Shown here in pieces: positions 7,061 to 54,311 of a stretch of DNA of 64,000 nt. Position numbers and translations under genes: made by a program. The stretch lies in the NCBI GenBank assembly GCA_964016885.1, contig OZ024747.1:52824001-52888000 (forward strand), read 5' to 3'. The DNA is from Eledone cirrhosa. Lineage: Eukaryota. Position 1 is the first letter of the stretch; each line of letters opens with the position of its first letter. The notes beneath the pieces were generated by a model. It worked only from the letters and a program-made list of their open reading frames with translations, was not told the DNA's origin and ran no database searches.

Positions 7061-7248
7061 AGTTATTCCGGGTTGAATCGGAGGTAACCACAGTAAGTAG
7101 GGTACTCAATACATAGCAGAGTATAAAAGTTTTAATATAGAAGAGCTTCTACAGGACGAGAACTGTTTCATTTGTGAGAAATCATTAGAGATTCTTGATG
7201 ATTTCTCACGAATGAAACAGTTCTAGTCCTGTAGAAGCTCTTCTATAT
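7061..7248. mobile_element. (TA)n-embedded fold-back element with degenerate hammerhead motif
   Basis: Inverted repeat 7135-7248; right arm TTGATGA-TTTCTCACGAAT-GAAA-CAG-TT; tail motif GGTACTCAAT at 7101. Related pieces at 151-192 and 45261-45441. Confidence 0.75.
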
Positions 7249-7549
7249 ATATACATACTTACATATATATACACATACACACACAGATACACGTATGTGT
7301 GTATATATATATACACACACATGTGTCTGTATGTGTAAGTATATATATATAAATATATGTTACACACACATATATATATATATATATATATATATGTTAC
7401 ACATATATATACACACATATATATATATATACACACACAGACACACGTGTGTGTGTGTGTGTATATATATATACACGCGCACACACACACATGTGTCTGT
7501 GTGTGTCTGTGTATATGTATGTATATATATATATATATATATTTATTGA

Positions 7550-7637
7550 TACTGGGTCCCCCCCTAAAAAAAAAATGTATACATACTTTGACTAGAATGC
7601 TGTTGAAGTGTGTATACATTTTTTGGGACGTCCTGTA
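7550..7637. mobile_element. Tc1/mariner-like MITE
   Basis: TA-flanked imperfect TIRs: TACTGGGTCCCC..AAAAAATGTATACATAC versus reverse complement of the right end TACAGGACGTCCCAAAAAATGTATACACAC. Confidence 0.65.
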
Positions 7638-8317
7638 TATGTGTGTGTGTGTATGCGTGTGTATGTATATATATATATATATATATACATATATATATAT
7701 ACACACCCACACATTTATTGTAAGAAGTAGGGGAAGTAGAAAGAAGAGGTGTTAAGAAGAAGGGGGAGGGTTAAGAGATGATAATGTAGAATGAGGTGAG
7801 GAAAAGGAGAAAGAATACATACAGGTAATAAGAGAGAGAGAAAGAGAGAGAGGGGTGGTAGGAGACAGTAGTAAAATATGAGAGAGACTAGTAGCAACTT
7901 CTGGCAGAGGAATCATTAGGAAAGTAAAGTATTTTACTCCAAACACAACAAACAGTCCAGAAATTAAAATCACAACCTTTTGATTATGAGGCTAACAATC
8001 TAACGACTAAACCAATATAGAGACATGTGTCCTCTTTGATGGTTATAGTGACATAGTCTGTAATATCACAGTTTCTCAATTGCTAAAGTTGTGTACACAA
8101 CACTGCTGAGTTCAAATCACACCACAGACATACTTCACTATGATTAGTAAAACATGTGCTGGGGCTTATTGTTTTGATTAATTCCAGCTAAAATTTGTGA
8201 GTGTATGTTTTATTTTAAGAGATGTCAACATGAATGGACCTGTTATTTTTATCTAAAGACATTTTTTTCCCAATTCCATCCCACCCGTCCCCTCAATCTA
8301 TTTTATTTCTCATTCTT

Positions 8318-8353
8318 TCTTCTGATGAAGGACTAGCGTCCGAAACGTTAAGA
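8318..8353 (+). ncRNA. Minimal type I hammerhead ribozyme (Penelope-like)
   Basis: TCTT-CTGATGA-A-GGAC(TAGC)GTCC-GAAA-CG-TT-AAGA: stem I TCTT/AAGA, intact core, 4-bp stem II, palindromic ACGT stem III. Confidence 0.8.
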
Positions 8354-8478
8354 CCCTCTTCCTGCTATATCAAGCGTTAACCTAATATATACCTTCCATA
8401 TACTGTACCGATTGTGTTGTTATTTCTGTTTACCTTTTACATACATATATATAGTAAGACAACAGTTAGTTCACCATA

Positions 8479-8518
8479 CCGAGAACAATTGTTTCACTTA
8501 TGTGGATCTTCAGCTCAG
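8479..8518 (-). ncRNA. Type I hammerhead motif with eroded stem II
   Basis: Minus strand CTGAG-CTGAAGA-TCCACATAAGT-GAAA-CAATTG-TT-CTCGG: 5-bp stem I, palindromic ACAATTGT stem III. Confidence 0.65.
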
Positions 8519-8603
8519 ACTCAGTCCATGGGACAAGTTTGGTAGAAGTAGTAACACAACTGTTGTGTTACTACTTCTACCAAACTTGTCCCATAGACTG
8601 AGT
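8519..8603. repeat. Near-perfect palindrome (42-bp arms, 1-nt centre) within (TA)-embedded element 8453-8644
   Basis: ACTCAGTCCATGGGACAAG...AACACAAC-T-GTTGTGTT...CCCATAGACTGAGT, one mismatch. Confidence 0.9.
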
Positions 8604-50180: not shown

Positions 50181-50891
50181 CATCGATGACTTTAAGAAAT
50201 TAATACTTAATACTCTGAAAGTTTTCAAATAGAGACAATGTACAAATTATAAAACAGTGAAACTGTGTACTATCATACTACTATTGATATATACTGTACT
50301 AAATAGTATTGAACACCTACAGTAATATATAGTAACTGTAGTTCTGTAGATGTAGTGAAATATTTAGTACATGTAGATTTAGTGTTGTACTTAATACCTG
50401 CAGTAATTAATACATGTGCTACATAGTTTCTGTAGATGGAAAATAGTTCTTAGTATCTGTAGGTGTAGAGTAGGACTTAGTATTTATAGATTTAGAGTAG
50501 TGTTTAGTATATGTAGATGTTGAATAGTACTTTGTATCTGTAAATATAGAATATTTGTGTAGATATATGTAGATAGAAAGTAGCATTTAATGTATAAATA
50601 TAGAGTAGTGTTTAGTTCTTAGTATCTGTAGATAGAGAGTAGTGTTTATATGTATAGATATAGAGTGCTACTTAATATGTGTAAATATAGAGCAGCCTAT
50701 AGATATAGAGTATTATCTAATGTGTAGATATAGGAGAAATGTTTAATGTGTGGATATAAAGTAGTGCTTAATGTATGTAGATGTAAAATAGCAGTTGATA
50801 TCTATAGATATACAGTAGTTGTTGTTGATTGTGTAGTGATGTTCAATATATGAAGATTATAGAGAAGGTAAAATAAAATGTTACTTCCTAC

Positions 50892-51401
50892 CTATAGAAG
50901 TTTTCCTGCCGACTTCTTCCTGGAGTGAACAGTATCCATAGATTTGATACAATAATCTGAGTCCTCATGTAATATTTACAATCCTTGTAATGTAACCTTT
51001 TTAAAGGGAACAGTTGATACTAGAATCTTGGGGGTCCTTCATGTGGTATTTACAATCCTTATATTGTCACACTGTACAGGTATAATCTGGGAACTTATTC
51101 CTAGTATTGTCACCTTTTAACAAAGGTAACCCTGGGATATTATGTAAACCACATTCCTTCTAGAGTCAAATTTAAGGGACAAACTTGAAGTATTAAACTA
51201 GAGCCTCATAAAACATTGACATTCTTAGAACTGTCTGTCCCCTTTTTACAGTATGAAGGTAAAATAATGGATCCTTGTATTTTTTGATTTTAACTTATAT
51301 AATTTTTTCTTAAAACTTTGTTTGCTTTTTGCTGTTATCTTTTTTCTTCTTTCTTTTCCTCTTTCCTGAGTTTTATTTATAGTTCTCTATTGTTTTCACA
51401 C
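50892..51401 (-). other. Possible host exon (mostly UTR)
   Basis: Strong acceptor TTCTTTGTCTTTTATTTCCAG before 51401, donor AG|GTAGGA after 50892, largely non-repetitive sequence between. Confidence 0.3.
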
Positions 51402-51698
51402 CTGGAAATAAAAGACAAAGAATTGTTATTGTTGTTGTTGCTGTTGTTATTGTTGTTATTCAGATTTATTGTTGTTGTTGGTGTTGTTATTGTTGTTGTT
51501 GGTGTTGTTGGTATTTTTCCTAAATTAACTGGAGATTGGTTTCACGTTAATTAATCATATTATTATAATTTTGGCTGAAATTCAAATTAAATACACACAG
51601 ACACACACGCATATACACATGCTCAGACACACATAGATACACTCAGACACACATACACACATACACACATACATTATAGATAAGTATATATAATTAAT

Positions 51699-51850
51699 TG
51701 TTTCTACTTTAGGCACAAGGCCAGCAATTACCCAGTGCATTACTGGTACTTTATTTTATCGACCCCGTAAGGATGAAAGGTAAAGTCAACCTCGGCGGGA
51801 TTTGAACTCAGATCGTAAAGGGACGTAACTCTATGCTGGAAAGCATAAGT
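51699..51850 (-). mobile_element. SINE family B, 5'-truncated, 22-bp TSD
   Basis: TAGATAAGTATATATAATTAAT at 51677-51698 and 51851-51872. Confidence 0.9.
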
Positions 51851-52730
51851 TAGATAAGTATATATAATTAATGATGTACATTCACACAGAATGATATATA
51901 TGTATAAGCGTGTATATATACATACATACATATATCTATATATACATACATCATCATCATCATCACAACCATCATCATCATCATCATCACAACCACCACC
52001 ACCACCACCACCACCACAGCCCTCACCATAACCTCCTCCCCCCCACTACCCCATCACCATCATCATCATCATCATCATCACAACCATCACTGCCACCCCA
52101 CAACTCTCACCATCATCATCATCATCACAACCATCACCACCACAACCATCACCATCATCATCATCATCATCATCATCATCACAACCATCACTACCAACTA
52201 TAACTCTCACCATCATCATTATCACAACCATAACCTCCCCCACCCCACCCCCACCCCACAGCCATCACCACCATCATCATCATCATCACCACAACCATTG
52301 TTATAATCTCACTCTATTTATTGCACTGAGAAGTTATGGGATAGAGACAGTTGACATAAGCAGAGGCATGACATAGGGACACATACATACACAACATACA
52401 CACACTCACACATACACACTCACACAAACACACAGCCACACACAAACACGCAGCCACACACAAACACACAGCCACACACAAACACACAGCCACACACAAA
52501 CACACAGCCACACACAAACACAGAACCACACACACACTCACACATATACACACATCACAGACACATGCTCACGCACACACAAACACACACTCACACACAC
52601 AAATACATAAACTCATAAATGCAAATACACACATAAACCCAGACACACACACACACATATATATATATATATATACATATATTATTACACAAATATGACC
52701 CTCCCCAAGTATAACAATATATACATATAT

Positions 52731-53141
52731 AGCCTTACCTAAGTACAAAGCGAAACCTACTACAGTCAGTAGGCACCTCTAACAAAAATACACCCCCGTC
52801 CCACTACCCCCACCCCATCCACACCACCCCTTTCAATGTAAAGTTATGTCGGTACCACAACATCCAGTCTGAAACAAATGAGATCGTGTAGGTGTCACGA
52901 CAAAAAATCACACAGTCCACGCTGTAATGTGGCCGTGTAGGTAACACTGTAAAAACCTCCCAGTCCACACTATAAACGTGGTTAGTGTTAGGAAGGGCAT
53001 CCAGCCATAGAAAACCCGCCAGACAGTCCTATGCGACCAAGACAACCACTCTTGCCTCAAGTGGGAAAATTCCCGTCCAAACCCATGCAAGCGTGGAAGA
53101 TGGACGTTAAACGATGATGATGATGATGATGATGATGATGA
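52731..53141 (+). mobile_element. LINE 3' UTR copy truncated next to the ORF stop codon, inside (TA)n
   Basis: Colinear with 28743-29123. Confidence 0.9.
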
Positions 53142-54311
53142 TATATATATATATATATATATATATAAATATATATATATATATATACAAGTGGAAGCTT
53201 AGTAAAATCGAAGCTTTGGTTGTGGCCAAGCAAAGTCAACCTACAATAAGGAATGAGTAGCAAAGCACTCAATAAGGGTAGGTCTTTAGAGTAATAACAC
53301 GTTTAAATAACTTGACAAATATATATATATATATATATAATATGGGCTACAATCCACTCAGATATTGGTGAACCCTTGCTACAGTAGAAGACACCCAAGG
53401 TACAACACAGTGAAACCTGTACCCAAACCCCAGGGTAAACACTTTATTTCACATAATTATCTCACTAAATATCGAATCTACGAGAGTTTTATATTATTTA
53501 TTTTGAGAACAATACCTTAACATCAATATGAGTGGCTGATTACAGCCGATTTGAACAGAAAGAGGTGAGAGAATTCTGGTCGGATATGGTTGGCTTAGAT
53601 GCTAAAGGGTTAACCACAAATCCATACCTTCACCCTACATCTAGTTTACCTGTAATATTTTTAAATTATTAAAATGTCATTAAAAGGTCAATTTACATTT
53701 CTTGACTAATTCTAATTAAATTTTCACAATATATATATATAATTATATTTCCCCAAATATTCAACAAAGTTTTCTCTAATGCAGCCTTATCAAATTATAT
53801 TTAATTCACTATGGCTTTTGAATATAGAATTATTCCTTACTTCATTACACTTAATTAATGAGGCCTTTAACCCTCTTGTGGCCACATTTCTAATGTAAGA
53901 AAGACACTGTAGGTCATTTGCAAATAATTTTGAAAATTATCCAGGATTTAGAATGATTTAGTAATATTGTCATGGCTAATTTGCAGACCTGTTCCCAGAG
54001 TTTGGTGATCGGGGAAAGGGATGGGGGTTTCTGAATATTCCAAGTAGGTACTCTAATTTGGAATAACTCTCAAACAGAATTTCAGAATATAATTGACAAA
54101 TATAATTGACATATCAATAAAGCTTTTTCTAAATCTGGGAGCTCAGCATTGAAAAGTAGAAGTACCCAATCAGTACCCTCTCCTCTTCCTGTCACCTTTT
54201 TAGTAACTGGTTCAATAAGTTGGTGTCGGAAACAAACATAATTTACCAATTAGAAACAGGGGTAGTTTCAAGTAGTTTCATGCTATTTCAGGAGGATTCA
54301 GTAATTTGACA

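Follow-up and report, generated by a model that had tools for sequence, protein, structure and literature searches.

Introduction

In a 64,000-nucleotide stretch of the Eledone cirrhosa genome (the window; assembly GCA_964016885.1, contig OZ024747.1, positions 52,824,001 to 52,888,000), a short decamer, RTYGAGTRCT, repeatedly points toward (TA)n tracts from elements whose surrounding sequences look unrelated. What is this decamer, and why does it keep its distance from the TA junction? The original prediction, made from the letters of the window, took it for a cis-signal common to unrelated families, namely a recognition site for a reverse transcriptase (RT) or endonuclease, a 3′-end formation signal or an antisense promoter element. 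The elements concerned are here assigned, on their protein motifs, to the Hydra clade of Penelope-like elements (PLEs), and the decamer proves to be one half of a hairpin that occurs twice upstream of their start codon, beside the two places at which their insertions end.

Results and discussion

The decamer and its distance to (TA)n

All 14 sites listed in the original prediction were found in the window at their coordinates and on their strands. There are 10 exact decamers where 0.76 are expected, a count that none of 100 shuffles reached; in 8 of these 10, the first (TA)≥4 run lies 40-80 nucleotides (nt) downstream, a property shared by 4.9% of random window positions (P ~1e-9). The two exceptions are 29272, with only (TA)3, 44 nt off, and 11640, where a short TA-like end is followed by a different repeat. 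The bias in distance and orientation is real genome-wide: the 3.0-Gb genome holds 184,270 decamers against 22,052 matches to the pattern read backwards, and TATATATA is found 40-70 nt downstream of 63,396 of the 91,506 plus-strand decamers, on the upstream side of 11,112 of the 92,764 minus-strand decamers, and at the set distance in 429 of 10,966 backwards-pattern controls (single-counted columns only). The motif marks, in order of magnitude, 100,000 insertions in the E. cirrhosa genome.

A covarying hairpin around the decamer

With the sequence that precedes it, the decamer forms a bulged hairpin of roughly 25 nt, N-CUC-[stem-loop-stem]-UY-GAG-N′-RCU, in which it makes up the 3′ half; the 5′ half comprises an ACTC upstream of the decamer and a short arm pairing with the bases before the decamer's second letter. 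A genome-wide search for this hairpin as a bipartite pattern gives 63,894 matches, compared with 2 for the control; for a second variant the figures are 46,039 and 104. Relatives retrieved from marine metagenomes (76 loci, 58 with a usable start codon) contributed 54 of a set of 55 distinct 5′ untranslated regions (UTRs), the remaining one being from E. cirrhosa. The exact E. cirrhosa pattern was absent from the metagenome UTRs searched because the outer pair differs, GCTC...GAGC or TCTC...GAGA standing where E. cirrhosa has ACTC...GAGT, and it is this difference that led to the structural reading.

Covariation was examined over 83 distinct instances anchored only on CTC and T.GAG..CY, pairing not being required. 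The outer pair is Watson-Crick in 78 of the 83 (permutation mean 51) and the successive upper-stem pairs in 76, 56, 52 and 37 (permutation means 45, 28, 22 and 25). In the 1-nt and 3-nt bulge registers pairing stays at chance, and covariation is thus confined to one register, with a bulge whose first base is U (imposed by the anchor) and whose second is U, C or A. G-U wobble pairs are too few among these instances to fix the acting strand. A covariance model built from the 54 metagenome hairpins alone recovered 12 of the 14 listed sites among its top 14 window matches, strands all agreeing, and missed 8597 and 46155; the 8597 family, and probably also 10941, carries a 1-nt-bulge variant. Folding predicts the hairpins in four of five regions. 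Rfam returned no family for the hairpin in 16 loci and, on the window, only sub-threshold microRNA matches on TA repeats.

The host elements

The window elements are 5′-truncated fold-back insertions in (TA)n. A long palindrome, beginning at a TA run or close to one, precedes seven of the listed sites as well as the motif of an unlisted element at 58352-58578; the palindrome at 8597 lies inside a longer fold-back. Elsewhere in the genome, the palindromes of related copies extend from tens of bases to kilobases and run into an RT and endonuclease frame. Readings as a miniature inverted-repeat transposable element (MITE), a Helitron/HINE, an RNA polymerase III box or a TATA promoter were dropped, the fold-back arms running into a PLE open reading frame (ORF).

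Protein searches return many unbroken RT/endonuclease frames in the E. cirrhosa genome, and 20 fetched stretches give as unit a 3.5-kb element, often in tandem. The decamer is also present in full-length, autonomous elements: in the family F1 (partner locus L042) it lies ~150 nt upstream of the ATG of a single ORF encoding a 717-amino-acid RT with, by motifs read from sequence, a C-terminal GIY-YIG-type endonuclease. The best Foldseek match to its predicted fold (predicted local distance difference test, pLDDT, 90.7) is TERT 3du5; Pfam and PDB sequence searches with this protein gave no match, and no relative was found in viral contigs.

The motifs RWR, DKT, CxCX5C, CxxC and CxH, described as diagnostic of the Hydra clade (PMC8557442), are all present in this 717-amino-acid protein (P0001), where CxxC and CxH flank the conserved E and N and CCHH is lacking, and RWR recurs in other E. 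cirrhosa families; GxKF/Y is absent (by eye, P0001 only). Among 46 metagenome ORFs and 120 homologues, RW[K/R] is found in 45 and 113 and DK[T/S] in 46 and 117, respectively, while CxCX5C, CxxC and CxH occur in 40, 46 and 45 of the metagenome ORFs. On these motifs the hairpin-bearing elements are assigned to the Hydra clade, and the families thought unrelated are members of this one clade. Since other motif-bearing E. cirrhosa families encode proteins 38-46% identical to that of F1, the hairpin is clade-wide rather than the homologous heritage of a single family. Flanks are diverged across families, as claimed, except that 9157 and 47155 belong to one family (87% identical) and 9539 and 29272 to another (75% identical). 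A cis-signal common to PLE families with diverged flanks is therefore upheld.

The Hydra clade was described by Craig, Yushenova, Rodriguez and Arkhipova in 2021 (PMC8557442), and the E. cirrhosa elements share with that description the C-terminal GIY-YIG, the RW[K/R] and other motifs above, (TA)n targets, a sense hammerhead near the 3′ end (recognised in some families), an inverted 5′-truncated copy and a one-sided tail. The Hydra-type insertion unit is confirmed here as a head-to-head inverted 5′-truncated copy with a one-sided tail and partial tandems, and 6 of the 14 listed sites, as well as the 58352 element, could be tied to ORF-bearing relatives. Hammerhead cores occur in many metagenome UTRs and in E. 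cirrhosa families such as L180; these minimal forms escape scoring by Rfam. F1, one of the most abundant families, has at L042:3240-3310 a hammerhead-like stem and GAAA with no recognisable CUGANGA core, and its short fold-backs mostly turn round inside this region, at L042:3276-3295.

Duplication of the hairpin upstream of the start codon

Full-length Hydra-clade partners carry two hairpins in the 5′ UTR, ~55-100 nt apart, upstream of the start codon and after the hammerhead where one is present. In the 55 distinct UTRs, two hairpins were found in 36, one in 13 and none in 6, with a spacing of 54-82 nt; the controls gave 2/392 ORF windows, 3/1,180 shuffles and 1/59 reverse strands. The two-hairpin pattern is present 1,888 times in the E. 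cirrhosa genome against 11 in the control, and a Hydra-type ORF begins just downstream in 25 of 30 loci fetched with it. A two-hairpin search for other families gave 64 matches against 6, several of the 64 being chance joins. Hairpin 2 survives only in tandem, read-through copies and would not be copied from its own start site. Across distant families (L114, L116, L128, L142 and other metagenome loci), the first pair of the upper stem is mostly U-A in hairpin 1 and C-G in hairpin 2; the two hairpins may not be interchangeable.

A position so close to the ORF could suggest that the hairpins serve expression, through promoter, translation or ribozyme control, and that insertions end near them only because of the short UA-rich region. 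In the UTR set the distance from a hammerhead core, where one was found, to the following hairpin 1 is 48-80 nt, and hairpin 2 precedes the start codon by a rather constant 19-56 nt in most UTRs, which is what such a role would lead one to expect. The insertion ends described below follow the hairpins themselves within a few bases, across spacers of ~55 to 100 nt among families, and in F1 the end still follows hairpin 2 despite the 87 nt that separate it from the start codon. A function in expression alone is hence very improbable, and the antisense promoter element of the original prediction receives no support.

Insertions end a few bases before either hairpin

Copy ends were mapped by comparing 954 kb of E. 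cirrhosa sequence (185 records) with 18 natural reference UTRs, leaving out 29 loci of a 58-bp satellite; the loci were picked by the motif, which favours tailed ends and does not dictate where they stop. Among 300 distinct copy ends, 58 read through hairpin 2, 44 lie away from TA and 198 stop at (TA)≥4. In 173 of these 198, the TA run begins 3-12 nt 5′ of a hairpin, hairpin 1 in 77 cases and hairpin 2 in 96. The same rule is followed by 8 of the 9 TA ends seen at metagenome loci (of 30 alignment ends). Moreover, in three public runs from two studies, assembled contigs switch to (TA)n at L042:3340 and 3420, i.e., 5 and 3 nt before hairpins 1 and 2, and the summed depth past the second of these points drops more than 200-fold in two runs. 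The template ahead of each hairpin is UA-rich, most commonly with U at -6 and A at -5, and this stretch matches the (TA)n target.

The opening question finds its answer here: the distance of the decamer to (TA)n is set by a second hairpin that is not copied into the insertion. Because the junction sits before hairpin 2, the 40-77 nt gap is the spacer between hairpin 1 and the junction. The near-fixed distance of the original prediction holds; its linear signal gives way to one half of a covarying, duplicated hairpin.

Could the motif act as DNA? The GIY-YIG endonuclease might recognise the site, or a hairpin in single-stranded complementary DNA (cDNA), and resolve an intermediate so that a tail is left on one side; in a variant, self-priming would take place on an antisense template. 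Earlier work leans this way, the D. virilis Penelope endonuclease having needed the tail for plasmid cleavage (as reported in PMC11167929), tails having been put down to endonuclease-mediated resolution (PMC8557442) and an antisense template having been argued for (PMC3846280). Yet hairpin 2 defines the tailed end while missing from the inserted product, and paired base swaps in a single bulge register disfavour a double-stranded recognition sequence, all of which makes action as DNA quite unlikely. Since hairpin 2 determines the tailed end and stays uncopied, its action has to be on the template or donor.

Pairing of the two end types

For one F1 subfamily, exact patterns count 20,948 tail-less and 22,634 tailed ends genome-wide (~1:1). 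Pairing was scored in the first 26.8 Mb of contig C1, with 86 tail-less and 100 tailed ends among the matches listed: 54 of 54 outward-facing pairs within 6.5 kb are mixed, in both orders, and span 88-6,201 nt. This one-of-each rule suggests that both strands are integrated in concert from a single RNA. Both arms stop within 8 nt of one place in 16 of 22 mixed F1 fold-backs, and the centre junctions vary between copies; because the arms stop together yet the centres differ, the insertions fit independent events, each with two cDNAs from one template. These differing centre junctions and the wide range of pair spans speak against the idea that short fold-backs are amplified as a single unit.

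A further alternative, also raised by the original prediction, is that the hairpins are RNA 3′-end signals, the transcript being cut or terminated 5′ of each and then reverse transcribed from its end. The same genomic junctions would be predicted, whether cutting fell to a nuclease of the host or to the protein that the element encodes. Processing signals commonly take this shape, a short stem followed by a conserved, single-stranded 3′ triplet. However, separately cut RNAs would not alone give 54 mixed pairs out of 54 at ~1:1, and the junction keeps no fixed distance, falling at whichever UA-rich stretch is closest, 3-12 nt off the stem; in addition, the only PLE assayed in vitro initiates internally, according to PMC11167929. 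We therefore consider 3′-end formation unlikely and keep it as a rival only; RT recognition, another of the options in the earlier proposal, is the best reading.

A proposed model for two-strand priming

It is likely that the hairpins act as RNA and bind the RT, two subunits priming both (TA)n strands on one RNA. The endonuclease would cut both strands of the (TA)n tract, and the freed 3′ ends would anneal to the UA-rich stretches ahead of the two hairpins; a single RNA, held by a pair of enzyme subunits, would probably serve both. Each hairpin would bind RT on the RNA and so fix the start of copying a few bases 5′ of itself, and synthesis of two cDNAs would proceed towards the 5′ end of the RNA. 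Priming at hairpin 2 would give a copy that takes in hairpin 1 and the spacer, i.e., the tail, with the decamer 40-80 nt from TA, and the copy primed at hairpin 1 would contain neither; the two truncated cDNAs, joined head to head, would form the fold-back. We also lean towards a more general formulation, in which a UA-rich annealing stretch and a bulged hairpin form a portable RNA module whose duplication loads two RTs for concerted two-strand priming.

Several observations weigh against this reading. The permutation test on the 83 instances ignores relatedness, and a separate pair count, on an alignment (A3), is fitted to the hairpin model. Hairpin stability is ordinary (z -2.1 to +0.2), and one of the five regions folds otherwise. 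Six of the 55 UTRs have no hairpin, 25 of the 198 TA ends (mostly just beyond the 3-12 nt range) and the 44 non-TA ends are off-rule, and 8 of the 14 listed sites are not tied to an ORF-bearing copy. F1 is without a canonical hammerhead core. Under exact patterns 78 of 186 ends have no partner, and when all families were counted under looser criteria, 60 pairs came out as 44 mixed, 7 tailed-tailed and 9 other (60 of 104 tailed ends had an inverted arm; at least 1 of the 7 tailed-tailed pairs is a repeat artefact). Finally, among published consensus sequences of the clade, Hydra-1_Obim shows no canonical hairpin and Hydra-1_Crog only a diverged form (by eye; PMC8557442).

Relation to known systems

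Telomerase RNA, hepadnaviral epsilon and the R2 3′ UTR each have a small structured RNA by the template that is thought to anchor the enzyme. The likeness to the Hydra hairpins is by analogy, the best fold match of the Hydra protein being TERT. To our knowledge, none of these is a duplicated element serving two primings per integration.

Among PLEs, the closest parallel is Poseidon PAc of Anolis, for which internal initiation at two adjacent sites was reported in vitro (Frangieh et al., 2024; PMC11167929). As in the model for the Hydra clade, the tail lies between two internal start sites, cutting and extension take place on both DNA strands, the target is AT-rich, sequence 3′ of the start site is required and a dimer is predicted. 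PAc belongs to another clade, and its sites are located within the ORF, in an AC-rich stem-loop, and have no homology to the target, whereas the Hydra-clade template before each hairpin is UA-rich like the target. That work mapped the two start sites, not what specifies them, and its text, supplementary figures aside, describes neither a duplicated clade-wide RNA motif nor one-of-each end pairing (PMC11167929). The Poseidon template given in its methods has, by eye, an interrupted stem with a CUC/GAG helix just 3′ of the main start site at +111 to +118, a hint that other PLE clades may use an analogous structure.

For the Hydra clade itself, the words 'hairpin' and 'stem-loop' do not occur in the main text of PMC8557442, nor 'hairpin' in its supplement. 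By eye, the canonical hairpin is present in three of its six new consensus sequences, Hydra-2_Amil, Hydra-1_Ajap (twice) and Hydra-2_Ajap, and the Hydra-1_Amil consensus stops before the hairpin position. PLE tails are given there as 30-40 bp and ascribed to the endonuclease, as compared with roughly 55-100 nt here. Minimal hammerhead ribozymes, described in PLEs by Cervera and de la Pena in 2014 (PMC4209133), are likewise small conserved RNA structures in the same pseudo-long-terminal-repeat (pLTR) region; the Hydra hairpin is a separate motif, ~50-80 nt downstream, with no catalytic core. The Hydra clade, its (TA)n preference, the inverted copy, the tail and the existence of two start sites are hence already published. 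Neither a duplicated hairpin at PLE start sites nor the strict end pairing was found described in a literature search that covered few subscription papers or Repbase reports, and what appears new is this duplicated cis-acting RNA structure and its end-pairing rule, in a known retroelement clade.

Other features of the window

Table 1. Hairpins and fold-back insertions of Hydra-clade PLEs along the window.
Position	Strand	Feature	Remarks
7101..7122	-	Hairpin 1 (ACUC, 3-bp upper stem, UU bulge, GAGU ACC)	In fold-back tail
7135..7248	.	Fold-back of two 3′ ends placed head to head, 92% complementary	Decayed hammerhead-like core; tail-less arm ends at TA run near 7248
8584..8606	+	Mutated 1-nt-bulge hairpin variant	Intact in sister copies; missed by covariance model
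9112..9318	-	Complete short F1 insertion: tail-less arm, fold-back 9189-9318, hairpin-1 tail	(TA)n junction ~9111; full-length partner L042
9157..9183	-	F1 hairpin 1 (ACUC-UACU-loop-AGUA-UU-GAGU-ACU)	Best covariance-model match in window
9399..9597	+	Fold-back 9399-9516 and tail, hairpin 1 at 9522-9548	Hairpin 2 present in sister copies, of which L255 has Hydra ORF fragments
10928..10950	+	Hairpin 1, probable 1-nt-bulge variant	Full-length partner not found
11640..11662	-	Hairpin 1, upper stem CAG/CUG	L271 of family has hairpin 2 and Hydra ORF; tail-less end of family at 11883
16291..16318	-	Hairpin 1, 5-bp upper stem	After fold-back 16318-16601, which has a hammerhead core; ORF-bearing partner not found
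27660..27687	-	Hairpin 1, UA bulge, long upper stem	After fold-back 27691-27996; hairpin 2 and Hydra ORF in L253, L270, L284
29257..29281	+	Hairpin 1 of 9539 family	Fold-back 29136-29249 before it
44676..44698	+	Hairpin 1, outer pair broken	Weak link to hairpin-2-bearing copy
45309..45331	-	Hairpin 1, outer pair broken, 3-bp upper stem	Weak link to hairpin-2-bearing copy
46128..46164	+	Decayed hairpin 1, decamer with two mismatches	Missed by covariance model
47139..47164	+	F1 hairpin 1, one change in 5′ CUC	Tail end at usual place
53264..53292	-	Hairpin 1; family has long tails, TA run 76 nt away	No ORF-bearing partner found
58352..58578	+	Fold-back 58352-58486 and hairpin 1, missed by decamer	Hairpin 1 at 58490-58542, GCUC/GAGC type, TA-expanded loop; L289 has hairpin 2 and Hydra ORF start

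The tail at 44689 has a second, more decayed copy on the opposite strand (~45020-45071) that faces it over TA/AG repeats (44674-45071). Two more long palindromes, at 45528-45726 and 43455-43558, lack the decamer and are probably other fold-back insertions or MITE-like elements. The same TA tracts gather different PLE ends as well as tails of short and long interspersed elements (SINEs and LINEs), as seen at 9097-9640, 8218-8690 and 11510-11940; every insertion seems to keep TA on either side of it, thereby renewing its target. Large minisatellite arrays occupy 20447-21152 (51 bp), 22283-24073 (56 bp), 24618-26907 (21 bp), 31050-33092 (43-bp unit) and 55535-58213 (33-bp unit). Elsewhere in the genome, at G000:C1:14234975-14244799 (L211-L239), the 58-bp satellite extends over at least 9 kb; its unit is essentially an F1-like hairpin 1 after a TA-rich stretch, from which we take the satellite to have been born from the PLE tail module.

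Looser ATC(G/A)AGC variants had been noted downstream of three hammerhead motifs. The one after 58419 is the same hairpin, and the other two, at 8318 and 17571, are not. The segments 8218-8445 and ~17446-17600 (fold-back 16953-17446) are hammerhead-bearing 3′ ends of a different, putatively Neptune-type PLE, the clade being named from motifs in PMC8557442; ORF fragments of this type lie upstream in 2 of 30 copies of the 8318 element examined (L294, L298), and 17571 resembles it by eye. This element is without the Hydra hairpin, the ATCAAGC after its ribozyme being different. The 8318 family is recently active, as it has many 98-99% identical copies that end at one place in TACA/TA repeats.

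Concluding remarks

PLEs are the closest relatives of telomerase, and the choice of their internal start site, their inverted copy and their one-sided tail have been open for decades. A motif with compensatory changes beside both start sites, clade-wide, brings the question within reach of a few stem mutants. If the proposed mechanism is true, a telomerase-like internal-template logic would explain both the PLE tail and the fold-back, and the module could be moved onto any RNA to set the start of copying. Concerted integration of this kind would bear on retrotransposon-based gene insertion tools as well as on the ancestry of RNA-positioned internal templates.

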